Source of the DNA: Promethearchaeota archaeon
GTDB lineage: Archaea > Asgardarchaeota > Thorarchaeia > Thorarchaeales > Thorarchaeaceae
Direction of reading: 5' to 3'
Length of the DNA: 30,874 bases
Assembly: GCA_027031765.1 (NCBI GenBank)
Contig: JALVPN010000151.1
Location: 1-30,874, forward strand
The position numbers were made by a program, and so were the translations under genes. The notes below the pieces were generated by a model, which ran no database searches, was not told the DNA's origin, and saw only the letters and a program-made list of their open reading frames with translations. Position 1 is the stretch's first letter; each line of letters starts with the position of its first letter. This document shows, piece by piece, positions 307 to 23,242 of this stretch.

Positions 307-1794
307 ATGGACTCTGGTCGTAGGCAAGCGCCACCCGTTGGTGATCCATTGCACGACACACAGGTTCTCACAATCTTCGACCGGCCCGCTGGGCTCAGGG
401 TCATCGGGCTCACCCAAGTCGCCTTTGGGACCGTTGGGCTAGTGGGTTCAGTGGGGCTACTTGTCGCAACTCTGATGGGTGTCCCGGCGCTCTCAGAGAA
501 CGGGTACCTCTACTCAGCCCTCGTGTTCGTGGGCATTGCAGTGCCATGTCTTGTGATAGGCAACTACGTGGACGACCTGAGAAGGGGGGCCGTCATCGCC
601 CAGATGGGATACAGTGCCATAGCGGCCACACTTGCGGGATACCTGCTCATTGTCCGCGGTCCCGACTATGAGTGGACGGTCCCGGTCTTCGGTATCACAG
701 TACAGGTCGCAGTGGGCCGGGTGGCGCTGATGATTGTCGTGGTCCAGGTACTCATAGCACTCTACCTGATAGCGAGATGGGAGCGCGTAGTGCCACCGGA
801 CACAGCAGTGGTCGTCAGGGACAGGACGAGGGCCAGACTGGTCGAACGGGGCATAGTCCAGCTGCCTGTCGGAGAGCACCTGCTCGCACCGGATGGGACC
901 AGCATCCACGACCCGGACGAGGTCCAACACGTCCTTGAGGCACGGAGGGTCGTGAGTGAAGAGGGCACGGCAATACTCTGTCCGAACTGTGGGGGCGCGA
1001 CCTCACTGTCGAAGGTGAACGAGGACAACACACTCACGTGTGACTACTGCGGCGTGAGAGTGGCGGTCGGCAGTGTGTTCGTACCGTGTACCAACCACCC
1101 GGAATACCTTGCTGCAGCGACCTGTGCGGTATGTGGTCAGCACTTCTGTAGGCGCTGTCTGACCGCACAGGAACCGCCCGTAGACGAGCGCTGGCGGGGC
1201 TCCCTCGTGCTACTGTGCAGGGACTGCTTTGAGGGCAGGTACATACCCGCAGTCGCGACCACTGCCTTCGCACTCCCGATAGAAGAGCTCTTTGGAGAGG
1301 CCGGCTCAAGGTTCAGGGCTGTGGCCCACCTGTACCGCAAGTTCCTCAGTGCGTATGCGAAAGTGGTGCGCTTTACGGTCCGGCTGTCCGTGGAGGTGCT
1401 GCCCCGGCTCATTGCGAGGGGGAGCCGGGAACGGTCTGACAACTGCGTTGCTTTCCTGTTCGCAGTTATCATCGCCATCATTGCCGTCCCCATCATCGTC
1501 GGTGTGCTGCTCCTCTTGGGCGCAGTCATAGTGGTACCGCTGCTCTTCTATGCAGGCCTCATAGGAGTCGTCGTGCAGGCGGTGCGCATCCTGCGCGGAA
1601 CCGACTTTGTCAGCCTTGACGAAGCAAGAGAGAGGGGCCTCCTCAAGAGGAAGAGGACCGAGATACCCAAGGAGTCGGAGCTGAGGCGCGACAGCCGTCA
1701 CTGGGAGCGCGGACGGACAGAGCCAAGGGGGTCCTACAAGGCCCCACTCTTCGACACGAGCTACGACCGTGGTGAGCCCACGAGGAGGTGGTGA
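307..1794 (+). CDS. Membrane protein with C4 zinc ribbon and B-box-type zinc finger
   Basis: About 4 N-terminal hydrophobic helices, then CPNC-x16-CDYC, then CTNH-x8-CAVC-x4-CRRC-x19-CRDC, then a C-terminal hydrophobic hairpin. Confidence 0.8.
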   Translation: MDSGRRQAPPVGDPLHDTQVLTIFDRPAGLRVIGLTQVAFGTVGLVGSVGLLVATLMGVPALSENGYLYSALVFVGIAVPCLVIGNYVDDLRRGAVIAQMGYSAIAATLAGYLLIVRGPDYEWTVPVFGITVQVAVGRVALMIVVVQVLIALYLIARWERVVPPDTAVVVRDRTRARLVERGIVQLPVGEHLLAPDGTSIHDPDEVQHVLEARRVVSEEGTAILCPNCGGATSLSKVNEDNTLTCDYCGVRVAVGSVFVPCTNHPEYLAAATCAVCGQHFCRRCLTAQEPPVDERWRGSLVLLCRDCFEGRYIPAVATTAFALPIEELFGEAGSRFRAVAHLYRKFLSAYAKVVRFTVRLSVEVLPRLIARGSRERSDNCVAFLFAVIIAIIAVPIIVGVLLLLGAVIVVPLLFYAGLIGVVVQAVRILRGTDFVSLDEARERGLLKRKRTEIPKESELRRDSRHWERGRTEPRGSYKAPLFDTSYDRGEPTRRW

Positions 1795-6078: not shown

Positions 6079-6520
6079 TGTCACCCAACTCCTCTAGGTT
6101 GGAGGGGCCAAACGGGGTCAGTCCCCCTTATTAACATGAGGCATCTTGACCACAGTGCTGCCTCACATACGGATACGAGGCTGACAGGACACGGCAGCAA
6201 GGGTCGGCACAGCCCTGGCCCACACCCGGGGGCGAACTTGACAGGGACCGCACAGTCACAAGTGTCCTGGGACTGCCAGCTGTGACTGGTGAACTCCTAT
6301 ACCAGCATGTTTTTCACACCATCAAGACAAGTCGACCTACCATTGTTGCTGTCCGACAGAAGAGGAGAGCTCCACGGCGATGACGTGGGGCGCACAGCAG
6401 CCCTGACGCACAGGTCGGCAAAGGACACACCCCTCAGTCATAGCGTACTGCGTGGACAGACGCTGTTGGTGGCCGGGGTAACACTTGCCACTGTTGGGCC
6501 ATGAGCACCAATGCCACTCT

Positions 6521-8005
6521 ATGAAGGTGTTGCACTTAGACGCGACTATCTCCGGACGCCAAGGAGGCCACGAAACAGAAGAGTTCCACATACTGTTCAA
6601 TGCCATCCCAGAGGCTGCGTTCCTGTGGGTCCAACAACATGACGGCACAATAGTCCTGCGCGCAATCAACCGCGCGATGAGCCTCTTCTCACGTGGTGCA
6701 GCTGATGCCTTTGTCGGGAGGAGAATCGGAGAAGTCTTCGACAAGGACGAGTGGACGTGCGGAGCAGTGAGGGAGGTGCTCAGGACAGGCCGGAGTATGA
6801 GACGTGAGGCCCCCGCCACAGACCACCTTGCCAGGGCACGCCGGTCTGTTTGGGAGATGACCCGCATATCTGGAAACGCCGCAGTGCTGGTCATCCGGAT
6901 GATTGATGTCAGCCGGAGCGAGATTGAGAGGTCGCAGAGGCAGGAACAGCGGTACAGGACGGTGCTCGGGGCCTCTCCGGACGCCATCTACCTTGTGGCT
7001 GCTGACGGCACCATAGAGATGGTGAACCGTGTTGCCGTCACCCTGAGTGGTTGCAAGGGGTATGACGAGCTCGTGGGGCGGAGCGTGTATGACTTTGTCA
7101 CGCAGGTCCACAAGGACGACGCAAGAGAGTTCATCCGCAGGGTGCTCAGAGAGGCCGGCCCAGTAAGGACAGAGTCCATCATGACGAGAGTGGACGGCAC
7201 GACCGTTGATGTCGAACTGCGCGCCGCCGCCATAGTTGACCCAGAGGACGGCCTGGAGGCGGTCGTACTGGTGGTCAGGGACATGTCCGACTGGAAACGG
7301 AGAGGGACAGAACTACGCTACGCCCGCGAGCGCGCGATGCTGTACCTTGACATCCTCGGCCATGACATCAGGAACCAGTTACAAGTGATAGTCGCGGCGG
7401 CCGAGATTGTTGAGCAAGGTACCCGGTCAGGCCCAGTATCAGAGAGCGTCCAGAGGATCAAGGATGCTACGAGCCGGTGCGCCACAATCATAGGCAAGGT
7501 GGAGGCCACCGAAGGGCTGAGCGCACTCAGACTAGTGCCCAGGGACATGTGCGACGTGGTGACCGAGGCCGTCAGGAGAACACAGAGGATGTACCCTGAC
7601 GTAACCATCGGGCTAGTGTCTGACGTTGAACACGTTGTTGTGGACGCTGACAGGTTCCTCGATGACATACTTATGAACCTGCTCGACAATGCGGTACGCC
7701 ACAACCCCGGGTCGACCGAGCACGTATGGGTCACTATCCACATGGCGCCCAAGGGGGGAGTCGTGGTCTCAATTGCTGACAACGGGCGCGGTATCCCGGA
7801 CCCCGTGAAACGAGCCCTCCTCGGACCGGCACGGCGCTACGGCGGCGTCAGCCTACACCAGATAGAAGAAATCGTGCACAAGTACGGGGGCCGCCTGACA
7901 ATCCAGGACCGCATCGAGGGGCGGCCTGACATGGGGGCAATGTTCCAGGTCCGGCTCCCTGCGAGCAGTAGCGTACTGCAGCCGAGCCCACCTAGTGGCC
8001 TGTAG
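6521..8005 (+). CDS. PAS-domain sensor histidine kinase (PAS-PAS-HisKA-HATPase)
   Basis: PAS-like segments FNAIPEAAF and YRTVLGASPDAIY. H-box LDILGHDIRNQL, N-box MNLLDNAVRHN, G1 IADNGRGIPD, and an atypical G2 (YGGVSL). Start uncertain (6485 TTG or 6521 ATG). Confidence 0.9.
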   Translation: MKVLHLDATISGRQGGHETEEFHILFNAIPEAAFLWVQQHDGTIVLRAINRAMSLFSRGAADAFVGRRIGEVFDKDEWTCGAVREVLRTGRSMRREAPATDHLARARRSVWEMTRISGNAAVLVIRMIDVSRSEIERSQRQEQRYRTVLGASPDAIYLVAADGTIEMVNRVAVTLSGCKGYDELVGRSVYDFVTQVHKDDAREFIRRVLREAGPVRTESIMTRVDGTTVDVELRAAAIVDPEDGLEAVVLVVRDMSDWKRRGTELRYARERAMLYLDILGHDIRNQLQVIVAAAEIVEQGTRSGPVSESVQRIKDATSRCATIIGKVEATEGLSALRLVPRDMCDVVTEAVRRTQRMYPDVTIGLVSDVEHVVVDADRFLDDILMNLLDNAVRHNPGSTEHVWVTIHMAPKGGVVVSIADNGRGIPDPVKRALLGPARRYGGVSLHQIEEIVHKYGGRLTIQDRIEGRPDMGAMFQVRLPASSSVLQPSPPSGL

Positions 8006-12423: not shown

Positions 12424-13587
12424 GTGGCCGTGTACATGGTGTTGTCGCGACTCTACCGCGTAGAGCTCCTGCTGCTTGGCGTCATGCTCATGATGCCGTA
12501 CTACGTGGTGGTGACGACCACACCCTCAGGCACCTCGGTCTACCTGCTGGCACTGGCGTGGGAGGCCGGGTCGTCGCCCCTACACGGTACTGTGCCATCA
12601 CACCGGTACCCTGTTTTCCCACCTGTCACCCTCGCAGCCATGGTGCTCGTGCTTCCACTGTACTTCATAGTGCGGGAGGTACGTGCCCCACCACACGAGT
12701 CCCTTGGCACTACAGCAGTCATAGTCAGCACTGTGCTGTGGACCGTCGTCCTGGCCGTCGTCCCGAGACCGCTGTACTGTGACGGCTTCGCAGTACTACC
12801 ACTGGCCGAGTACTGGGTCGTGTTGCCAGACTATGCAGCACTCCTCACTGCGGTGACAGTGGTCACGCCCACGCTCCTGCGGCTAGGGGCCCGTGTCAGC
12901 GAAGCAGAACTTGGTCCTGTACTGCCAGAACAGAGTGCACCACCGGAATGGATGGAGCGGCTGCGTAGACGTGGCGTGTACGTCCTCGTTGCGGTGATGA
13001 TGATAGTACCGGACTTCTTGTCCTCGGCATATGGTAGCACTGTCACCGGTGAGCATGGTCACCTCACGGAAATGGCGGCACTCACGTGGACGCTGAGCGT
13101 CCAGAGCATGATGACATCGCAGGGCCAGGTCACAGTATGGCTCTTGACCCTTGGGCCAGCGGTCGCGATGCCGGCGACCGTGCTGAGATGGGGCCTGTAT
13201 GCCGCAGTGGTGAGAGAGACCGTGCTCTGCACCAAGGGCGAGTCCAGCGTGATACGGGTGGTGGGCCTTGTCTCACTGTCCGTGCTCGTACAGGTGGCCA
13301 GCTCCCTCGCGTACTCCACGCCATCAGGGTCGGGCCAACTGATGGTGCGGCCCGTACCGCTGCCGGCACTCCAAGCTGCAGCCCTCTTCATGGCGGGGCT
13401 GGTACTGTACGTACGGTGGAAGACGAAACGAGCGACGGGCAACGATGTGGTCGAGGTGGTGGTACCATGGGGGCTCCTCGTGAAGTCGTGGTGCCGCAGA
13501 CTACGGCACAGAGTGAAAGAGCATGCAGAGGCAAGACACGATGCCCGAGAGCACAACAGAGATAGTCACGATGATGACGGACAGTGA
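12424..13587 (+). CDS. Uncharacterised polytopic membrane protein (about 8 TM, possible internal duplication)
   Basis: Two hydrophobic blocks of about 4 helices joined by a polar linker, with a charged C-tail. It overlaps the start of the ABC ATPase gene. Confidence 0.7.
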   Translation: MAVYMVLSRLYRVELLLLGVMLMMPYYVVVTTTPSGTSVYLLALAWEAGSSPLHGTVPSHRYPVFPPVTLAAMVLVLPLYFIVREVRAPPHESLGTTAVIVSTVLWTVVLAVVPRPLYCDGFAVLPLAEYWVVLPDYAALLTAVTVVTPTLLRLGARVSEAELGPVLPEQSAPPEWMERLRRRGVYVLVAVMMIVPDFLSSAYGSTVTGEHGHLTEMAALTWTLSVQSMMTSQGQVTVWLLTLGPAVAMPATVLRWGLYAAVVRETVLCTKGESSVIRVVGLVSLSVLVQVASSLAYSTPSGSGQLMVRPVPLPALQAAALFMAGLVLYVRWKTKRATGNDVVEVVVPWGLLVKSWCRRLRHRVKEHAEARHDAREHNRDSHDDDGQ

Positions 13588-14467
13588 GTTGCTACGGCTC
13601 GCGGATGCAGTGGGCGTGCCCATGCCCGGGCGGCGGGTGACAAGAGAGTGGCTTGAGGACGCCGTGCTGGAGGCGGTCTTGGAGCATGGGATGGGGATAG
13701 AGGAAACACCGCAGACCCCACTCACAGACCCGGCCATCGAGGTTGAGGGGATGTCAAAACGCTTTGGGTCACGAGTGGCTGTCCGGGCCCTTGACCTGAG
13801 AGTGAGGCCCGGGGAGATTGTGACGCTGGTCGGCCCAAATGGGGCGGGAAAGACAACGACAATGAGGGTCATCACAGGGATTGTCCGACAAGATGGTGGC
13901 AGGGTAGTGGTCAATGGTCACGACGTGCTCAGAGAGCCAGAGCTGGCAAAACGGGTGGTCGGGTACATCCCAGAACGGCCAGCATGTTACCCGAGCCTTC
14001 GTGTGCACGAGTACCTGACCTTTGTTGCAAGACTGTACGGGACACCCCGGGTGCGGGCCCTACTCCGGATGTCATGGTGCGCAAGGGTGTTCCAGCTCGA
14101 AGAGTACATGGACGCATTCATGGGCACGCTGTCAAAGGGCAACCTCCAGCGGGTCCTCGTGGCCAGCATCCTCGTCAGAGACCCACCCTTCGTCCTCCTG
14201 CTGGACGAACCGATCTACGGCCTCGACCCGAGGGGCGCATGGGCGTTCAAGAACGAGCTCAGGAGGCTCAGGGACGGGGGCTCGGCAGTACTCCTCTCGA
14301 CGCACATACTAGAAGCAGCGGAGGGCATCAGTGACAGGTTGGTGGTCATGAACGAGGGCGAGGTGGTGGGCCGCGGCACCATGGACGAACTGCGCAGTGT
14401 ACACCCCGGTGCTACCACCCTTGAAGAGGTGTTCCTCGAGCTGACCGGCGGGGTCCCGCGTCCGTAG
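13571..14467 (+). CDS. ABC-2-type exporter ATP-binding protein with N-terminal helical extension
   Basis: Walker A GPNGAGKTT, signature LSKGN, Walker B LLLDEP, H-loop LSTH. About 45 extra residues precede the NBD. Start could be 13541, 13571 or 13574. Confidence 0.9.
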   Translation: MMTDSELLRLADAVGVPMPGRRVTREWLEDAVLEAVLEHGMGIEETPQTPLTDPAIEVEGMSKRFGSRVAVRALDLRVRPGEIVTLVGPNGAGKTTTMRVITGIVRQDGGRVVVNGHDVLREPELAKRVVGYIPERPACYPSLRVHEYLTFVARLYGTPRVRALLRMSWCARVFQLEEYMDAFMGTLSKGNLQRVLVASILVRDPPFVLLLDEPIYGLDPRGAWAFKNELRRLRDGGSAVLLSTHILEAAEGISDRLVVMNEGEVVGRGTMDELRSVHPGATTLEEVFLELTGGVPRP

Positions 14468-14486
14468 CGTCCACGGAGGTGACAGT

Positions 14487-16067
14487 GTGACTGGGACGAG
14501 ACCCGTACTGGCCATGGTTGTGAAGGAACAGCTGAACCACCTACGGCGCACCATCACGTCACCCGCCCTGCTCCTGTTCTACACCCTCACGGTGATTGGA
14601 GTATGGGCAGTCAGTTCCCTCGTGGCCGTCCTCGTCGGTCTCGGCCCCGCCCTCGGCAGCCTGGTCAGCCTGTTCGAGGAGTCTGTCGAACGCGACGTGG
14701 TGTTCCTAGCATGTGCTGGTGCGACTGCCACATCTGTCCTTGTCGGACAGTCAGGACATGGGCTGACGTCGCTCCTGAGGCCATACGATGAGAACACCCT
14801 CATGTCAGCGCCAGTCACACCGCGTCAGGTGTTCGTTGCCGGCTATTTCAGGAGGGTCACACGGAGGGGTATGCTGACCGTGCTTGCCATGGGCATACTG
14901 CTACCGCTGCACCAGGTCTCGTGGACCGCGTACTGGAGTGCGGTCACTGTCGTAGGCACCGTTGTCCTACTCCTCGAGTTCAACTATCTCCTTGGTGGGC
15001 TGGCTGCAACGTTGCGGCTGAAACTGGAACGCAGGAGCACACAACGACGGTGGCAACGCGCAGGACTGAGCGGACTGCTCATCATCGTCATGTTGAGTGG
15101 GTCACCAGTGGTCACCGGAATGCGGCCCGCGTGGGCGCTGCCCTACAACGCAGTGGCTGCAATGGTGCTGAAGTTATCGGGAGTCCTCACCGACGGGCCC
15201 ACGGTCATCGAGACCGTTGCCGTAGTGACACTTGGGATCCTTGCGGCACTGTCTGTACTGGCACACAGCCTTGACGCCGGGTTCTACGAGCTCGCCGTGG
15301 TCGGTCGTCAAGAGGAACAGCGTGGGGGGCGTGTGAGCAGGCTGCTACGGGGCGAGGTCGACTTCACACGCTCCCGTGCGAGCGACCCGGTCGTCTGGCT
15401 GATGGCCAAGGACTTCTGGACGGAGATGCGCCGGCCACTCCAAGTGTGGAAGTACATCTATGTTGTCGTTGGGACTGCGCTGTCCGTGGTGCTCAACACG
15501 ACCGATACAATGGCGCTTGGCCGCGTCAGGATTCCCCACGAGCTCGAGTATGCTGCCGTGCCTGCAATGGTGTTCATGTTGGTGCTGGTCGTACAGCTCG
15601 TGAGTGTGGGCTCCCTGCTAGGCTTTGTTGACGAGCGCGACATGATATACCAGCTGCGGGCAAGTCCCCTGAGAGCTGTGGACATAGTCATGGCAAAGTA
15701 CATCCCGAGTGTGGTCGAGGCCACCCTGCTCGTGCTCCCGGCCTGCGGCATGGTAGCATACATCTTCCCGGTCAAGGGCGGTCTCATCCTACTCTCCCTC
15801 TGCGCACCGCTGGTCATCGTGTTCTGTGCAGCCGGCACCATGATAGGGGCGTCAGTCCCTGTGTTCACGGCAGACCCCCGCACGCCCCCCCTGCCACTCG
15901 CACTCGCACTGCCGACCATCAACTTCGTATCCGCAGGCATCGTCATCGGCGTGCTCGTACTTGCAGGGGGCACTGTCCTGGCGCTCGTGGCGCTGCCAGC
16001 AGTGACTGTCAGCCTGACTGCACTGTTCCTCGGACTGGGTGTCCTGTCCCTCAGGCAGTACCGCTAG
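14487..16067 (+). CDS. Putative ABC-2 exporter permease
   Basis: About 12 hydrophobic helices, with SAPVTPRQVF and QLRASPL..DIVMAK motifs typical of double-length ABC-2 permeases. GGAGGTGA SD precedes the GTG start. Confidence 0.8.
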   Translation: MTGTRPVLAMVVKEQLNHLRRTITSPALLLFYTLTVIGVWAVSSLVAVLVGLGPALGSLVSLFEESVERDVVFLACAGATATSVLVGQSGHGLTSLLRPYDENTLMSAPVTPRQVFVAGYFRRVTRRGMLTVLAMGILLPLHQVSWTAYWSAVTVVGTVVLLLEFNYLLGGLAATLRLKLERRSTQRRWQRAGLSGLLIIVMLSGSPVVTGMRPAWALPYNAVAAMVLKLSGVLTDGPTVIETVAVVTLGILAALSVLAHSLDAGFYELAVVGRQEEQRGGRVSRLLRGEVDFTRSRASDPVVWLMAKDFWTEMRRPLQVWKYIYVVVGTALSVVLNTTDTMALGRVRIPHELEYAAVPAMVFMLVLVVQLVSVGSLLGFVDERDMIYQLRASPLRAVDIVMAKYIPSVVEATLLVLPACGMVAYIFPVKGGLILLSLCAPLVIVFCAAGTMIGASVPVFTADPRTPPLPLALALPTINFVSAGIVIGVLVLAGGTVLALVALPAVTVSLTALFLGLGVLSLRQYR

Positions 16068-17991
16068 GCGAGTTGGTAGCAGGGCCGGCACGGACGAGCC
16101 GCATTGCATTTGCCACCACTGCAAGGGTCAGACCGACATCTCCGAACAGGACTGCCACCCACAGGCCCACAAGCCCCGCGATAGACAGGAGTGTGAGTAG
16201 GACCTTGACCGAAAGGGACACCCCGACATTCTGACGCACAACACGCATCGTCCTCCGCGCCCTGTCGATGACAGCAGGGATACGGCGCAGGTCGTCACCC
16301 ATCACCGCCACGTCTGCGGCCTCCAGTGCGATGTCGCTTGATGCAGCACCCAGGGCCACACCCACGTCCGCCGCAGCCAGGGCAGGGGCATCGTTTATCC
16401 CGTCACCGACCATGACCACTGCACCTTCTTTCCTGAGCTGCCTCACCATGGCGACCTTGTCCTCTGGCAGCAGCCCGGCGTAGAACTCTTCAATCCCGAG
16501 GCCCTCAGCAACACGCCTGGCCGTGTGCTCGTTGTCCCCGGTCAGCATGACCGTGCGGATGCCCATCCTGTGCAGGAGCTGGACGGTCTCCCTGCTCTCG
16601 CCACGTGTCTGGTCGCCAAGTATTATTGTGCCAAGGTGTTGGCCATCACGGGCCACGTATACCGAGGTGCCGACACCACACATGTGGTCACGACCCACGG
16701 CCACGTCCTGCTCGTCGAGGAGCCTGAGGTTTCCCACGGCATACCGCTCGTCACCAACGCGTCCAATCATCCCCTTGCCCGGGACGGCCCGGAACTCCGC
16801 CGGTCTGGAAAGAGTGAGGCCCCGCTCACGGCTGTTGTCGGCAATGGCCATAGAAACTGGGTGTTCAGACATCTGACCCAGTGAAGCGGCGGCAGTGAGC
16901 ACCTCATCTTCGGAGCCTGCATCGTGGACACACACGCCCTCCACACCGAGCTGGCCCTGGGTGAGTGTGCCCGTCTTGTCGAAGGCCACAGTCCGTGTCC
17001 TGCTGAGGTGCTCGATGTACTCCGGCCCCTTCACTAGGACGCCAGAGCGGGCAGCCCCACCAAGCGCGCTCACCATGCTCACAGGGATGGAGATTGCAAA
17101 GGCACACGGACACGATATCACGAGCAGGGTCAGGCCCCTGTACACTGCAGCCACGAGGGGCGTGCCCAGGAGTGCCGAGATGGCAGAAACAGAGATGGCA
17201 AGCGCGACCACCACCGGCGTGTACATGTGGGAGACCCGTGACACGAGCAGTTCTGTTGGGGCACGGTGCTCTTCGGTCTCCCTGACGAGCTTGATCGTCC
17301 TTGCCAACACCGTGTCGTCAGACCACCTGGTCACCTCGACCTCCAAGTACCCTTCTTGGTTGAGAGTGCCTGCAAAGACGTCGTCGCCGGGCCCTTTCGT
17401 CACCGGCAAGGACTCGCCTGTGATGGGCGCCTCGTCCACCGAAGACGTGCCCGCCACCACCCGTCCGTCCAGGCCGATGCGTTCACCCGGGCGTACCAAC
17501 ATGACAGAGCCGACCTCGACCTCCTCCACATCCATGCAGACCTCGGCGCCGTCCACCTTGACTGTGACCGTCGGGCGTTCGAGGGCCAGTAGTGACTCAA
17601 TCTCCCTGTGCACCACCCGGTCAGTCCTGTGCTCCAGCAGGTCCGCGATGAAGAACAGGAACATCACTGCGGCACCCTCTGTCGGTGCACCAATGACCAT
17701 GGCGGCAGCAGCCGCAAAGGTCATGAGAAAGTTGGTGTCAAGGTGCAGACGTGCAGCCCCGCGTAGACCACGTGGGATGGTCCACCGGCCCGACACCAGC
17801 ATGGCAACAAGGAGGAATGCATAGGAGTACACGACACCTGCACCCACATACTGACTGAGCAGCCCGAGAAGGAATGCAGTCCCCCCGACCACTGCGACAA
17901 CGTATCGGCTGCGCATGTCCACCGTCCTTTCCCGCTCCTCTTCTCGGGCGCAGTGGGCACACACATGACTGTGACTACCGGCCTCTGACAT
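16051..17991 (-). CDS. Heavy-metal P1B-type ATPase (ZntA/CadA-like, probably Zn/Cd/Pb)
   Basis: TGES, ISCPCA, DKTGTLT, SEHP, MLTGDN and GDGINDAPAL. Lys in TM7 (VSLSVKV) and GD in TM8 fit the P1B-2 subgroup. The 3' end overlaps the permease by 17 nt. Confidence 0.95.
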   Translation of the reverse strand: MSEAGSHSHVCAHCAREEERERTVDMRSRYVVAVVGGTAFLLGLLSQYVGAGVVYSYAFLLVAMLVSGRWTIPRGLRGAARLHLDTNFLMTFAAAAAMVIGAPTEGAAVMFLFFIADLLEHRTDRVVHREIESLLALERPTVTVKVDGAEVCMDVEEVEVGSVMLVRPGERIGLDGRVVAGTSSVDEAPITGESLPVTKGPGDDVFAGTLNQEGYLEVEVTRWSDDTVLARTIKLVRETEEHRAPTELLVSRVSHMYTPVVVALAISVSAISALLGTPLVAAVYRGLTLLVISCPCAFAISIPVSMVSALGGAARSGVLVKGPEYIEHLSRTRTVAFDKTGTLTQGQLGVEGVCVHDAGSEDEVLTAAASLGQMSEHPVSMAIADNSRERGLTLSRPAEFRAVPGKGMIGRVGDERYAVGNLRLLDEQDVAVGRDHMCGVGTSVYVARDGQHLGTIILGDQTRGESRETVQLLHRMGIRTVMLTGDNEHTARRVAEGLGIEEFYAGLLPEDKVAMVRQLRKEGAVVMVGDGINDAPALAAADVGVALGAASSDIALEAADVAVMGDDLRRIPAVIDRARRTMRVVRQNVGVSLSVKVLLTLLSIAGLVGLWVAVLFGDVGLTLAVVANAMRLVRAGPATNSPSGTA

Positions 17992-18313
17992 GGGCCCCTG
18001 TCCTCCTCAGTACGTCAACAATGCACTCATCGCTCACACGGTAGTGGGTCCGCTTTCCTCTGCGCTCACGCTCCACAAAGCCCAGGGCCTCCAGCATCGA
18101 GAGGTGGTGGCTAACATTGCTCACTGTAAGGCCCAGCTCTCTGCTGATATCGGACACGCACAGTCCTGGCCGCCCAATGAGGAGGAGCAGGATCCGCACA
18201 CGGCTCTCATCAGCGAGGAGCTTGAATATCCGTACCATGTCACGTAGCTCCCCGCGTGAGGGGAGCACTTCAGATACGACCGGCACTATCTTGTCACCGC
18301 CAACATATTCCAT
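17975..18313 (-). CDS. ArsR/SmtB-family transcriptional regulator
   Basis: FKLLADESRVRILLLL, LCVSDI, SNVSHHL..L and RRGKRTHY. It overlaps the ATPase start by 17 nt. Confidence 0.93.
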   Translation of the reverse strand: MEYVGGDKIVPVVSEVLPSRGELRDMVRIFKLLADESRVRILLLLIGRPGLCVSDISRELGLTVSNVSHHLSMLEALGFVERERRGKRTHYRVSDECIVDVLRRTGAHVRGR

Positions 18314-18317
18314 CCAC

Positions 18318-18345
18318 TGAATAGCTGTTCAAGTGTTCATATATA
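18318..18345 (-). promoter_or_regulatory. TATA box and SmtB/ArsR-type operator of the arsR-P1B operon
   Basis: Minus strand reads TATATA-TGAACA-CT-TGAACA-GC-TATTCA-GTGG-ATG. The 6-2-6 core resembles the cyanobacterial smt operator. Confidence 0.75.
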
Positions 18346-18494
18346 GCCTTTGGTGTGTGGCCGGCTGTCCGCACGGCAGCTCACGCCTTACAGGTAGAGC
18401 TCAACAACAATTATCAGGCGTCACACGGAGCTGTACAACACATGACTACACCATATCACACCCCCAGCGCCCCACGGTTTGGGAGAGGACACAG

Positions 18495-20246
18495 TTGGAG
18501 TCACGAGTAGGTGATGACAAGTACCGCAGCACCCTTGAGATGGCCAACGACGGTATAGTGGTGGTACGCGAGGGCAGAATTGTACTCGCGAACAGGGCTT
18601 TCAGGGAGATGCTCGGCCTAGACAAGATGGATGTGACGGGTGCAACATTGGAGGACGTACTGGGCCCACTGACAAAGCACCTGCGGGGTGACCACGAGAG
18701 ACTTACGGACTGGGGGGCTGCCGGCAGCTCAACGTTCACACTAGAAATCGGACGCACCTCTTCTCAGAGGCGCGTGGTGGAGGTCACAACGGGGCCGCTG
18801 GTCTACGACGGCACGCCAGCCGTGGTGGCAGTGGTGCATGACATAACCGAACGGGTAAGGCTTGAGGCGGCCATGAAAGAATCGGAGCTCAAGTACAAGA
18901 CCCTGTTCAACTCCTCGCCCATCGCATACTTCACACTCACGCCCTCCGGCACCATAAAGCAGGCCAATGAGGCAGCGTACGAGCTGCTCAAGTACGAAGA
19001 GGGGGAGCTGCTACGGAGGAACATAAGGACGTTCATCGTGCGTCCAAAGGAAGGCCCTGATGTGATACAACAGGTACTGGACGAGGTCATGCAGGGCAAG
19101 ATGGTGACAGACATTGAAGTGGAGGTACGTCGGTCGGATGGGGAGAAACGCTGGGTCAGCGTGACAGCGAGGGTCCTGCCCACTGCTGGTCAGACACGCG
19201 AGATTGCCTTCATGGCCAGCGACATCCACAGGCGAAAGGTGGCAGAACGGCGCGAGCGTGAGGAACGTGCGCGGGCCGACCTGTACCTTGAAGTCATGAC
19301 CCACGACCTGAACAACGTGAACCAGAGCCTCATGCTGTCACTGGAGCTGCTCGAACAGACCGTTGAGCTCCCAGAGCGCGCACAAGAGATGCTCAGACAG
19401 ACGACGTGGAGTATCCGTAGGTCCGCACGCATGATTGCCAACATGCGGGCCCTCATGACGCTGCGCGACAGCCCACCGCCAAAGGAGCCTTTCGACCTTG
19501 CGCACGCCCTGCAGATTGCCCTCGACGCTGTGGAGAACGACTACCCGTGGAAGTCCCTGCGTCTGAACACAAACATTGCCGAGGGGCGGTTCATTGCCAG
19601 GGCCCACAAGTACCTTGTGAACGTGTTCCTCGAAATCCTGCACAACTCGATGCTGTTCACAGATGAGGACGAGGCTTGTGTGGATATCACAGCATCACTG
19701 GACGAGAGCACCGACAGGATCAGGGTCGAGATTGTGGACCGGGGGCCGGGTGTACCGGACGGACTCAAAGAGGCCATATTCAGGCGCACAGGCGAGCCGT
19801 CACACCAGGATGTGGGGAGGGGGCTGGGACTGACGGTTGTCGACAACATAGTGAGAGACCTTGAGGGCCGGATCTGGGTTGAGGACAGGGTGCCCGGAGA
19901 CCATACGCAGGGCGCCAGGTTCGTCTTCGAAGTGCCCGTGTGGCGCCCGCAGCGAGAGCTCCCCTGCGGGTGTGACAACTGCATCAAGTTCTACACGTCT
20001 GAACGCTGTCTGTTCTGCAGGCCAACAAAGGACATCGTGCTCGCGGTCATGGAGGAGATGGGAGTCCCCCGGAGGCTCATCACTTTCGTGGATGTCGACG
20101 ACCCCAGCACCGGGGTGGACCCGGACGAGCTGCCCATGCTGCCTACCGTCAAGATCTGCGACACGGAGCTCACCGGCCTCGTTAGTGACGACCAAGTGCG
20201 CACCGCGCTCACAGCACTTGTGCTGAAGCCATGCTGCCCACTCTGA
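18495..20246 (+). CDS. PAS-PAS histidine kinase with C-terminal Cys-rich thioredoxin-fold domain
   Basis: Two PAS segments; H-box LEVMTHDLNN, N-box LEILHNS, G1 DRGPGVPD, F IFRR, G2 GRGLGL; then about 95 aa with FYTSERCLFC, FVDVD and LPTVKI. TTG start at 18495 follows GGGAGAGGA. Confidence 0.88.
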   Translation: MESRVGDDKYRSTLEMANDGIVVVREGRIVLANRAFREMLGLDKMDVTGATLEDVLGPLTKHLRGDHERLTDWGAAGSSTFTLEIGRTSSQRRVVEVTTGPLVYDGTPAVVAVVHDITERVRLEAAMKESELKYKTLFNSSPIAYFTLTPSGTIKQANEAAYELLKYEEGELLRRNIRTFIVRPKEGPDVIQQVLDEVMQGKMVTDIEVEVRRSDGEKRWVSVTARVLPTAGQTREIAFMASDIHRRKVAERREREERARADLYLEVMTHDLNNVNQSLMLSLELLEQTVELPERAQEMLRQTTWSIRRSARMIANMRALMTLRDSPPPKEPFDLAHALQIALDAVENDYPWKSLRLNTNIAEGRFIARAHKYLVNVFLEILHNSMLFTDEDEACVDITASLDESTDRIRVEIVDRGPGVPDGLKEAIFRRTGEPSHQDVGRGLGLTVVDNIVRDLEGRIWVEDRVPGDHTQGARFVFEVPVWRPQRELPCGCDNCIKFYTSERCLFCRPTKDIVLAVMEEMGVPRRLITFVDVDDPSTGVDPDELPMLPTVKICDTELTGLVSDDQVRTALTALVLKPCCPL

Positions 20247-20578: not shown

Positions 20579-23242
20579 CTACCAGTAAGACTCCTCAATG
20601 CGGGACACAGCCCACATGACAACGACAAGGCCAAGGAATGCCACACCGAGCAGCGCCAGACGTGGGATGTCCGCCTCGGAGAGCAGGGGGAGACCGGTGC
20701 GCACGGTGGTAGAGGTAGTGGGCGTAGTTGTTGTGGTGGTGGGTACTGGCAGCGACACGATGCCCAGCTTCCAAGACACGAACGCAATCTCGTTTCTCCA
20801 CAGCTCATAGGCGTCGCGACCGGTGGAGCCATCAGAGTCGGCATTGAACTCGACCAGGAGCATGCCATTTGCAATGGCACGGCCGGACCTGTGGACGACT
20901 ATCAGGGCCCTGTCGGCCGCCACGGCACCCGTGGACCCTGCAATGGCTCTACTATCCGTTGTGGGCGCGAGCATTGCGCCGTGACCAGGGACAGGACGGG
21001 CTGTGGGGATCATTGCGGAGCCGTTAAAGTCATGCGGGTACCTGAGCACGGGGTCGTCCGAGAGCCAGGGGTAGACCGTGGGCGCGCTGCTAAAGTCGGC
21101 AACATAGGTGAAGCCCATCGCTGACCACAGGGACTGAGCTGCAGTGTTCGAGTACGCGTATGTGGACACTATGAGTCCGTGTCCGGCCTTGAGGTGGCTG
21201 ACCAGTGCGCTCACGGTTGCGGTGGTGAAGATGTCACCCTCCTCGGGGTTGTCGATGATGATGAGGGACCAGTTCCGAGAGGTCAGCATCAGTCGGAAGT
21301 ACAGCCCAGTGGTCGTGAGCAGGTAGGGCAGACCGATGTCATTGAGAGCATGGGCGACTGGACCCCTGAACGGGTTGTCGTTCATGTCCTCTGCAGTGTT
21401 CAGACTGTCTGCGAGCACGAGCACCTGTGCACTGTCGGCAGTCAACCAGTTCATGGTATTGAGTACGAACCGCAGGTTCTGCCGTTGACCGATGTGCGTA
21501 CGGGCCACCCAGTCTGGGCCACCGGACATGACCAGACGGCCAGAATGGAACGTACTGCATGCCACAACGGGCATCCCCTGGTAGTTCCACAGACTCACAG
21601 CCCCCGGTTGGAGGGAAAGGTACGCGTGGGGCCCAATGCTGAGTTCTGAACACTCATCCAGGGCCACGTGTGCGCCAGACGTACCGAGCACCCTGGACTC
21701 GTTATCACCACCGGACGTTCCCACACTGATGCCCATCGACGACGTGATAGCGCTGAGCCGGCTATCAGCAGACATGACGGCCGGGTCCGACACATTGTAG
21801 CCACCGATGACGAACAGGGCGCCACCTGCTCCGACCCAGTCCACAATGGCCTCGACCTCCGGGGTCGTGAACTCGCTCTCTGGGAGGACCAGGAAGAGCA
21901 CATCGTAGCCGCCCAGAGTACTGGCAGTTATCGCGTCTCCGACAGTGGGTGCATATAGCTTGTCAATTGTGAACGCATTCTGTACCAGTGCATTGCGGAA
22001 GTCGCTGTAGTCGCCGGGGTGTCGACACATGGTGTCCCATGGGTCAACTCCATACATGGGGTTGTGCGCCAGGTCGAAGAGAGCACGGGCCTTCGCACGC
22101 GGAGAGAGCCAGTCCACTGCATTCAACAGGAGACGCGCAATATCAGTGCTCACCGATGAGACCGGGGTACCAATGTGGACGGCCCTGCCACCACGGACAA
22201 CGTCCCGCCGTGCGAGCAGTGAGACGTGGTCGGTCATGCCTGCGGCGTAGGCGAGTGGCGTCACAAGGTCGGCCTCTGTTGTCGATGAGAAGCCCGGCCA
22301 CTTGACGACGGCCCAGCCTGAAGACGACACCGCCACGGAGTCCCCAATCTGCCAGTTGCGTGTCACGGGATGCCTAGCAGCGACTTCATGTCTGTCCATG
22401 ACATAGTAGGTCCACATGGAGCCGTAACCGTCCGTGCCGGCATGCCCAGGTGCGAGTATCCCTGAATAGAAGAGATAGGACATGCCGCTGTTGATCGATA
22501 GGACGCCACCACCGCCCAGCCAGAAGTCGAGGACGTACTGTGTGATGGACTCGCGCGGCACCTGGTCCGGGAGGACGAGCACATCAAAGTCACGTGTGGT
22601 CAACCGGTGCTCAAGGATGTCCTGCGTGCTGACCGTGGAGACCACCGTGTTGTTGCTCGTCAGAGCCGCGACCACTGCACTCGGGTCACCGTTCAGGGTA
22701 CCCGCGGTCATGTAGTCTGGACGGGTCGTGTTCGGCTCGGCATACACGGCGACCCGTACTGTCTGCATGGCCCCCACTGTCTCGGAAAAAGCCGCACTTT
22801 CGAATGTGAACGTGACGGTCAGCGTGAAGGAGCCGCTGCCTGAGTAGGCATAGACCATGAAGTACCAGCGTCCAGCTCTCACAGATGACGTAGAGTAGGA
22901 CTCGTCCGGGGAACTGCTCCCCCGACGCCAGTCGTAGGTGCTGGTAGTGGGAGGACTGCCAGTACGCCCATAGAGGTCAAAGTCCTGGCCATCGGGGCCG
23001 TCAAGGATGGCAGTCAGCGAAGTTGCAAAGGCCGGCACGTCGAGGTAGAAGGTCTCCGACTCGCCCGTGCCCGACAGGTACCCTGAATGCGGCTGACCAT
23101 TGCTGAGCGGTGTCTGGGCCGGACTTAGTGGGGTGCCGTGGTACGGCGTCCGGGCACTGACGGGTGCCAGACAGGGCACTGCTAGGGGGAAGACCATTAC
23201 GATGGAGATGAGTAGAATGGCCACGTATCTCTGCTCATACAT
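20579..23242 (-). CDS. Large cell-surface protein: signal/TM, PPC domain, GATase1/GIFT-like domains, Thr-rich linker, C-terminal TM anchor
   Basis: N-terminal hydrophobic leader; PPC-like DFDLYGRTGSPPTTSTYD..RWYFMVYAYSGSG; GIFT/DUF4350-like LFDLAH...YSDFRNAL...YDVLFL...EVEAIVDWVGAGGALFVIG; PTTTTTTPTTSTT linker; LALLGVAFLGLVVVMWAV anchor. Confidence 0.75.
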   Translation of the reverse strand: MYEQRYVAILLISIVMVFPLAVPCLAPVSARTPYHGTPLSPAQTPLSNGQPHSGYLSGTGESETFYLDVPAFATSLTAILDGPDGQDFDLYGRTGSPPTTSTYDWRRGSSSPDESYSTSSVRAGRWYFMVYAYSGSGSFTLTVTFTFESAAFSETVGAMQTVRVAVYAEPNTTRPDYMTAGTLNGDPSAVVAALTSNNTVVSTVSTQDILEHRLTTRDFDVLVLPDQVPRESITQYVLDFWLGGGGVLSINSGMSYLFYSGILAPGHAGTDGYGSMWTYYVMDRHEVAARHPVTRNWQIGDSVAVSSSGWAVVKWPGFSSTTEADLVTPLAYAAGMTDHVSLLARRDVVRGGRAVHIGTPVSSVSTDIARLLLNAVDWLSPRAKARALFDLAHNPMYGVDPWDTMCRHPGDYSDFRNALVQNAFTIDKLYAPTVGDAITASTLGGYDVLFLVLPESEFTTPEVEAIVDWVGAGGALFVIGGYNVSDPAVMSADSRLSAITSSMGISVGTSGGDNESRVLGTSGAHVALDECSELSIGPHAYLSLQPGAVSLWNYQGMPVVACSTFHSGRLVMSGGPDWVARTHIGQRQNLRFVLNTMNWLTADSAQVLVLADSLNTAEDMNDNPFRGPVAHALNDIGLPYLLTTTGLYFRLMLTSRNWSLIIIDNPEEGDIFTTATVSALVSHLKAGHGLIVSTYAYSNTAAQSLWSAMGFTYVADFSSAPTVYPWLSDDPVLRYPHDFNGSAMIPTARPVPGHGAMLAPTTDSRAIAGSTGAVAADRALIVVHRSGRAIANGMLLVEFNADSDGSTGRDAYELWRNEIAFVSWKLGIVSLPVPTTTTTTPTTSTTVRTGLPLLSEADIPRLALLGVAFLGLVVVMWAVSRIEESYW

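Follow-up and report, generated by a model that had tools for sequence, protein, structure and literature searches.

What role can be played by a histidine kinase whose reading frame continues past the ATP-binding domain into a cysteine-bearing domain of thioredoxin fold? Histidine kinases normally sense N-terminally and hand what they sense on to a receiver. We addressed this question for a gene at positions 18495-20246 (+ strand) of a 30,874-nucleotide stretch of DNA from an Asgard archaeon (contig JALVPN010000151.1 of assembly GCA_027031765.1, family Thorarchaeaceae), the whole of which is referred to below as the window. The gene product is a soluble cytoplasmic sensor histidine kinase with domains in the order PAS-PAS-DHp-CA (DHp, dimerization and histidine phosphotransfer; CA, catalytic ATP-binding). 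What is new is a redox-competent thioredoxin domain that lies beyond the ATP-binding domain and is kept in essentially every genome of one Asgard family; this tail and its free relatives define an unannotated six-cysteine thioredoxin family. We put at about an even chance the proposal that the tail regulates the kinase as a thiol-redox (or thiophilic-metal) module.

A thioredoxin-fold domain beyond the ATP-binding domain

The features of the gene are as follows, with tail residues numbered from position 19950.

18495-20246, + strand: sensor histidine kinase gene with a C-terminal thioredoxin-fold domain (open frame, domain matches, full-length relatives)
18519-18866, + strand: PAS domain 1 (Pfam PAS_4/PAS_8/PAS_7, residues ~9-124)
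18891-19226, + strand: PAS domain 2 (Pfam PAS_9/PAS, residues 133-244)
19242-19484, + strand: DHp helices (weak HisKA match at residues 266-321; structure alignment)
19302-19304, + strand: codon of the phospho-acceptor His270 in EVMTHDLNN (His kept in 13 of 14 tailed kinases)
19614-19940, + strand: HATPase_c catalytic ATP-binding domain with N, G1, F and G2 boxes (PF02518)
19941-19964, + strand: short linker VWRPQREL-P from the ATP-binding domain to the first conserved Cys (alignment without indels)
19965-20243, + strand: six-Cys thioredoxin-fold domain of 93 residues, comprising strand 1, CxxC, helix 1, strand 2, loop, Pro, strands 3 and 4, and helix 3 (AlphaFold2 [AF2], Foldseek, VIA, profile)
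19965-19982, + strand: auxiliary Cys pair C6 and C11 (C-G-x3-C) before strand 1 (Cys table, alignment)
20007-20018, + strand: CLFC (C20-L-F-C23), a CxxC that opens helix 1 and occupies the canonical active site of thioredoxins (family alignment, model)
20142-20144, + strand: Pro65, directly before strand 3 (66-69), at the thioredoxin cis-proline position (invariant in 57 of 57)
20157-20159, + strand: auxiliary C70, in the turn between strands 3 and 4 (kept in 52 of 57)
20232-20234, + strand: auxiliary C95, four residues beyond the terminal helix (Cys table, alignment)

The frame is open from 18333 to 20246, with its TGA stop at 20244-20246, and the kinase match ends near residue 482 of 583, so that the frame runs past the kinase core just as an earlier note on this DNA had claimed. 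TTG 18495, GTG 18507 and ATG 18540 are candidate starts, and the choice among them is uncertain. The public gene call begins at ATG 18540 and gives a 568-residue product; we favor TTG 18495 or GTG 18507 because the aligned relatives begin about 19 residues ahead of a conserved A-x-DGIVV motif. Counted from 18495, the product has 583 residues, and full-length relatives are 48-50% identical to it.

The HATPase_c domain scores 60.4 bits against a cut-off of 26.4 and matches the HK853 structures 2c2a and 3dge (expectation value, E, ~9e-9), while the DHp and CA regions together can be aligned to the solved kinases 5c93 and 4u7n. N369, D400-G402-G404 and G426-G430 are near-invariant across 20 relatives, and the H, N, G1, F and G2 motifs are all kept. 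The core had been described as a complete HisKA-HATPase; the ATP-binding half of that description, with its boxes and the conserved histidine, stands, but the HisKA match itself reaches only 16.6 bits against a Pfam cut-off of 26.9. No REC or HPt domain is matched in the window kinase by Pfam or NCBIfam, and no CheW-like domain by Pfam. The eight-residue linker that follows is of constant length in all 14 tailed kinases aligned, with zero indels.

Taken alone, the tail (the last 98 residues, 19950-20243) matches no Pfam family at E up to 1 and draws just chance EF-hand matches from the PDB (E 0.4-0.9). The NCBIfam model TIGR00411, which describes the MJ0307-type thioredoxin, aligns to residues 12-41 with 13.8 bits (E 0.046), far from its cut-off of 92.75. 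A search of 1.84 billion representative proteins returned 58 relatives at E up to 1e-3, and a family alignment of 57 sequences served as the basis of an AF2 model of the tail. This model has a predicted local distance difference test score (pLDDT) of 89.6 and a predicted template modeling score of 0.80, and places a strand at 12-16, a helix at 23-37, strands at 44-48, 66-69 and 72-75, and a terminal helix at 80-91. The beta-alpha-beta...beta-beta-alpha core of the thioredoxin topology is thus present, and the predicted secondary structure agrees residue for residue with the layout that had been read from the sequence (IKFYT, CxxC, helix, ITFVD, Pro65, hairpin, terminal helix).

The top 50 Foldseek matches in the PDB are thioredoxin or NrdH-type chains only, some of them inside fusion constructs, at template modeling (TM) scores of ~0.6; the earlier note's worry that the tail might fail to model as a thioredoxin fold can be set aside. 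Exhaustive VIA-align searches place thioredoxins at Z scores up to 9.5, the N-terminal domain of SasA (1t4z) at 8.1 and KaiB (4kun) at 8.0. The tail-family profile, compared with solved structures, finds MTH895 (1nho, E 1.9e-6) and MJ0307 (1fo5, E 2.3e-6) best. A likeness to MTH807 and MJ0307 had been suggested; MJ0307 is indeed close behind the leading match, whereas MTH807 is not among the best 60 of the 105 profile matches. The family profile was needed here, since single-sequence searches of the tail gave nothing meaningful and the profile alone reached thioredoxins. The relatives match Pfam thioredoxin-type families weakly, the best being Glrx-like (E 1.3e-4, in 35 of 57), and no gathering score is passed; a single relative of the 57 matches Pfam KaiB (E 0.04). 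Profile matches to human glutaredoxin 2 are weak (E ~0.002-0.003), and the [2Fe-2S] thioredoxin-like ferredoxin family is absent from the Pfam matches listed for the tail or its relatives.

Because the AF2 model, the structural matches and the family profile agree, the tail can be placed in the thioredoxin-fold superfamily, as a divergent member whose nearest relatives are the small archaeal thioredoxins and which is sub-threshold for every curated family. With MJ0307 and MTH895 (TIGR00411) it shares a minimal thioredoxin/glutaredoxin-like fold of ~85 residues, the CxxC after strand 1, the Pro before strand 3 and a Gly after strand 4. It differs from them in having C-L-F-C rather than CPxC, four extra conserved Cys and the fusion to a kinase, in its sub-threshold TIGR00411 score, and in the restriction of its family to one Asgard family. 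The genome encodes three ordinary small thioredoxins at other loci, and the tail is therefore not the housekeeping thioredoxin. A full-length AF2 model, computed from a four-sequence alignment, has a mean pLDDT of 54, too low to reveal the packing of the tail against the kinase. A complex prediction for two DHp-CA cores and two tails scores 0.10 against a mark of 0.32 and speaks neither for nor against contact.

Conservation, cysteines and origin of the fusion

Kinases of 587-598 residues with 56-57% identical tails are found in NCBI, ENA and JGI data, where they are labeled just 'PAS domain S-box protein [Candidatus Thorarchaeota archaeon]' and the free relatives 'hypothetical protein'. HATPase_c is present in 19 and PAS in 15 of 20 fused relatives. 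We then surveyed 400 genomes of the phylum, 85 of them from the window's own family. Strong tail matches occur in 84 of these 85 (1-9 per genome), nearly all at E < 1e-27, with two incomplete genomes reaching ~1e-14; matches in other Asgard families are weak, and those inspected are ordinary two-Cys small thioredoxins. Among the best 150 matches, ~79 lie in open frames of 477-641 residues, with an internal stop in two only, and ~66 in stand-alone frames of 104-163 residues. The ESM Atlas likewise holds a 91-member Thorarchaeota PAS/HATPase_c cluster, whose tail superposes on our model with a TM score of 0.92, as well as Thorarchaeota clusters of ~113-residue 'hypothetical' relatives.

Stand-alone relatives in the same genome family could suggest that a missed stop or frameshift has joined two genes in assembly or annotation. 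This artifact is excluded because the uninterrupted fusion is kept across dozens of independent genomes, which also disposes of the same doubt in the earlier note; given in addition the constant linker length and the grouping of fused tails in the tree described below, its probability is close to nil. The fusion is real and has been kept by selection. Across 14 tailed kinases, pairwise identity averages 51% in both the tail and the CA domain, 55% in DHp, 46% in PAS domain 2 and 32% in PAS domain 1, the least conserved domain. With equal identity and a linker of constant length, the tail is as constrained as the catalytic core and held close to it.

Counted from 18495, the protein contains nine Cys, eight of them in the last 98 residues; this count and the location of CLFC had been given correctly before. 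The characterization of the tail as Cys-rich needs trimming: eight Cys are present, but only six (C6, C11, C20, C23, C70 and C95) are conserved, C8 in the middle of CGCDNC and C96, the second Cys of CC, being peculiar to this genome. The tail keeps two oxidoreductase hallmarks, a CxxC where helix 1 begins and a Pro before strand 3. C20 is found in 56 and C23 in all 57 family members, and helix 1 begins at residue 23.

Five family members keep the CxxC and have lost all four auxiliary Cys, and C70 is absent in these five only. They form a single clade (support 99/99) within the fused group of the tail tree. Because this subclade still has the CxxC, the CxxC is the essential part of the domain. 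A paralogous PAS-PAS-kinase in the window's genome has the same pattern, with the CxxC kept and the four auxiliary Cys absent (L044, at 6849-8579 of contig C188 in G000); its neighborhood contains an FtsX/ABC transporter and a GyrI-like protein, but neither ArsR nor a P1B ATPase.

In a canonical thioredoxin, strand 1 heads toward the active site, strand 3 leads back from it, and the final helix terminates at a distance from the active site. This topology, applied to the predicted secondary structure, puts C6/C11, C70 and C95 at the pole opposite the CxxC. Since they would cluster at one pole and were lost together in one subclade, we read the four auxiliary Cys as a likely single site, most simply for structural Zn (or Fe). 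Trx2-type zinc-finger thioredoxins (7d6l, Z 9.4; 2ppt, Z 8.4) also combine a thioredoxin with an additional four-Cys metal site. Trx2 carries two CxxC motifs in a separate N-terminal finger, which the tail lacks; in the tail the Cys are dispersed (Cx4C, residues 70 and 95) and would be united by the fold itself. Many stand-alone relatives have extra Cys motifs (e.g., G-C-x-C-G-C; CxCGC-type) in a loop beside the active site, and the whole tail-domain family may be metal-binding.

In the tail tree, the fused copies form one group (89/89), which includes three rows labeled stand-alone, at least one of them a truncated kinase call; the row for the C188 paralogue was translated out of frame and is disregarded. 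The group is one of ~10 lineages in an otherwise unresolved polytomy of stand-alone sequences. This is compatible with a single recruitment of a lineage-specific free thioredoxin onto the end of a PAS kinase, although the tree is midpoint-rooted and its backbone a polytomy, so that either direction would fit.

Among the tailed kinases is a paralogue (L025:7094-8845, + strand, G372) with Ser in place of the phospho-acceptor His (IMASDLNN) and an intact six-Cys tail. From its sequence, it may be a pseudokinase that retains the thioredoxin domain.

Small thioredoxin domains have also been joined to other Asgard signaling proteins. A 662-residue kinase from another Asgard family (L048:949-2934, + strand, G082) has the order PAS-Trx-second PAS-like region-DHp-HATPase_c. 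Its thioredoxin domain has a CxxC and passes the Pfam Thioredoxin cut-off at 29 bits; the segment recurs in 12 of 12 genomes of its family at 76-100% identity, in frames of 558-703 residues. Both proteins thus have a small CxxC thioredoxin domain inside a PAS-bearing histidine kinase, but the fusions are independent, and the second domain lies between sensor PAS domains and lacks the auxiliary Cys. In the same genome, a gene for a Ras/Arf-like small GTPase (L051:1471-2355, - strand; Pfam Ras, 113 bits) encodes a C-terminal CxxC thioredoxin (Pfam Thioredoxin, 25.6 bits). Together with the tailed kinase, these proteins suggest that small thioredoxin domains are a recurrent signaling module in Asgard archaea. 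A 2018 census of archaeal two-component systems reports thioredoxin-reductase fusions to receivers and no kinase-thioredoxin fusion (PMC5847659). Our literature search found no description of an archaeal kinase-thioredoxin fusion, although its coverage was incomplete and is not proof of absence.

Neighborhood and possible role of the tail

The kinase gene is divergent from a set of genes on its upstream side.

18314-18494, no strand: divergent intergenic region between the ArsR and kinase genes, with presumed promoters (open reading frame map)
17975-18313, - strand: ArsR/SmtB-family metalloregulator, divergent from the kinase (Pfam HTH_5; NCBIfam HTH_metalloreg, 81.3 bits, cut-off 55)
16051-17991, - strand: P1B-2 (Zn/Cd/Pb-type) heavy-metal P-type ATPase (TIGR01512, 478 bits)
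13523-16067, + strand: ATP-binding cassette (ABC) transporter pair, ATPase at 13523-14467 and ABC-2 permease at 14487-16067 (Pfam ABC_tran, ABC2_membrane)

The stop of the ArsR gene overlaps the start of the P1B ATPase gene. The ArsR motifs SHHL, D[DE]C and [DE]HV are kept in nine orthologues. The ATPase passes the cadmium model TIGR01512 (cut-off 313.5) and fails the copper model TIGR01511 (384 against 397), and the motifs of Zn/Cd/Pb pumps, CPC(x)4SxP, N(x)7K and DxG, were read by eye. It lacks an HMA domain, and its short N-terminal CxxC is kept in the 10 syntenic orthologues of an 11-member cluster, the eleventh member (L027, 936 residues) being a longer paralogue. An inverted-repeat search of the intergenic region found one 9-nucleotide palindrome only and no clear operator.

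The divergent placement of kinase and ArsR/P1B genes, pointed out earlier for this locus, recurs in other genera. Of 13 relatives sampled, 9-10, drawn from five further genera, have their genes in the order ABC ATPase, ABC-2 permease, P1B ATPase, ArsR, kinase, and the ABC pair adjoins the ATPase or the kinase in 10-11 of the 13; the genes downstream of the kinase vary among them.

We rate a thiol-redox regulatory module highest because the hallmarks of the tail are near-invariant, the tail is rigidly tied to the ATP-binding domain, and an independent fusion puts such a domain on the sensor side. In the proposed mechanism, the CxxC would switch between dithiol and disulfide, or would bind a thiophilic metal, and its state would alter the reach of the ATP-binding domain to the phospho-acceptor His. 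Thiol redox or metal stress would in this way be added to the signal sensed by the two PAS domains, and the kinase would work in the same physiology as the adjoining block of ArsR, Zn/Cd-type P1B ATPase and ABC genes. Kinase activity in ArcB and RegB/PrrB is set by reversible thiol chemistry, the mechanism proposed here, through Cys in the kinase's own PAS or DHp regions; to our knowledge, none of them uses a dedicated thioredoxin-fold domain beyond the catalytic domain. A further domain beyond the ATP-binding domain is familiar from CheA, whose P5 domain is regulatory, and from the REC and HPt domains of hybrid kinases, but these folds are unrelated to the thioredoxin tail. Should the tail tune the kinase, it would provide a compact example of thiol or metal input to two-component signaling in the archaeal relatives of eukaryotes.

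A number of points weigh against such a role. All functions proposed for the tail are predictions. A His that precedes the CxxC and is near-invariant in fused relatives is Arg in the window protein. The clustering of the auxiliary Cys is drawn from canonical topology and predicted secondary structure, not from distances, and their joint loss is one evolutionary event, modest evidence that they form a unit and weak as covariation. The conserved gene block could be synteny inherited within one family and need not signify a functional link. Some kinases with the tail, which are probably paralogues, are located elsewhere (L024, L025, L030 and contig C188), and ArsR with the ATPase already makes up a self-sufficient metal-response unit.

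The conserved Zn/Cd-efflux neighborhood and the richness in Cys make metal sensing the main rival, a minor but serious possibility in our estimate. On this account the tail would use the CxxC, the four auxiliary Cys or both to bind a soft metal such as Zn or Cd, and would report the metal load to the kinase, which would co-regulate or back up the efflux block of ArsR, Zn/Cd ATPase and ABC genes. The block with its P1B-2 ATPase and ArsR/SmtB genes is kept in six genera, eight Cys fall within 98 residues, the window ATPase is without an HMA domain, and CxCGC-type motifs lie near the active site in many stand-alone relatives; HMA domains and Sco-type thioredoxin folds likewise bind their metal at a beta1-CxxC-alpha1 element. 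However, ArsR already bears conserved candidate metal ligands, paralogous tailed kinases occur in unrelated contexts, the within-family synteny is possibly inherited, and CxxC with Pro is the pattern of an oxidoreductase and of no known metal-sensor family. The near-invariance of CxxC and Pro over fused and free members, which argues for chemistry and not mere shape, speaks against the idea of a redox-inert docking or stabilizing module, comparable to the N-terminal domain of SasA with KaiC. That idea, the least probable of the functional alternatives, draws on the alignment of the tail model to SasA and KaiB, both of which lack a CxxC and are outscored by ordinary thioredoxins. SasA, a cyanobacterial KaiC-binding kinase that docks through a thioredoxin-like fold (PMC3161067; bioRxiv 10.1101/2020.06.17.158394), resembles the window kinase in its use of this fold as a signaling module; in SasA, however, the domain is N-terminal, without CxxC, and docks KaiC, whereas in the window kinase it is C-terminal and has a redox-active motif.

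The tail might alternatively be an output other than a receiver, with ATP binding or His phosphorylation gating the access of the thioredoxin to its clients and thiol-disulfide exchange as the product of signaling. The position beyond the ATP-binding domain is where hybrid kinases place downstream modules, and the catalytic hallmarks of an active oxidoreductase are retained. In addition, the genome (95% complete) yields 18 HATPase_c matches, some of which may not be kinases, against three REC matches (on contigs C177, C12 and C202), none near the window kinase gene. The kinase is accordingly viewed as an orphan, like many archaeal kinases, a view that the scarcity of receivers fits circumstantially. 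That scarcity is common in archaea, however, and identifies no output; we know of no precedent for a histidine kinase with a thiol-exchange output, and in the independent Asgard fusion the thioredoxin lies among sensor PAS domains, which favors a sensory or regulatory reading. We hold an output role to be improbable, and slightly more so its specific form, in which the kinase, in a lineage (Thorarchaeota) rich in histidine kinases and very poor in receivers, would signal without a response regulator, its phosphorylation or nucleotide state gating a built-in thioredoxin that would reduce or oxidize targets such as the divergent ArsR. If phosphate-gated output were nonetheless true, it would constitute a phosphate-to-thiol relay not described in any two-component system. 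Less probable again, and only a little ahead of docking, is an Fe-S sensor, in which the two tails of a dimer or the six Cys of one tail would ligate a cluster whose oxidative loss switches the kinase, on the model of Fe-S glutaredoxins with a proline-free CxxC. The proline of CPYC glutaredoxins blocks cluster binding, and the motif here, C-[LVI]-F-C, has none; the weak human glutaredoxin 2 matches, a flavodoxin gene beside stand-alone relatives at six loci, and an anaerobic host lineage point the same way. No Fe-S family is among the Pfam matches listed, though, and by topology the auxiliary Cys would lie far from the CxxC, making a single six-Cys site unlikely.

Relatives and neighbors outside the conserved block

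The stand-alone six-Cys genes with an upstream flavodoxin gene on the same strand are L032, L034, L039, L040, L041 and L042, and the distance is 89-369 bp in L032, L039 and L040. Most sampled stand-alone loci also have an Hjc-like endonuclease gene just downstream on the opposite strand, and M42 peptidase, NfeD and MFS transporter genes occur in the neighborhood of these relatives, which is conserved as well but unlike that of the kinase.

Three further genes of the window were noted. A second PAS histidine kinase of 506 residues, without a C-terminal extension, is encoded at 6485-8005 (+ strand). Convergent with the tailed kinase, the gene at 20579-23242 (- strand) encodes an 887-residue protein that starts with a signal-peptide-like stretch, ends in a hydrophobic anchor and also contains PPC and DUF4350 domains and a poly-Thr linker; the relatives do not have it at this position. 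Finally, a 495-residue protein encoded at 307-1794 (+ strand) has a marginal match to IBR, a half-RING finger (25.0 bits, cut-off 24.3), and is possibly an Asgard ubiquitin-system-like protein.

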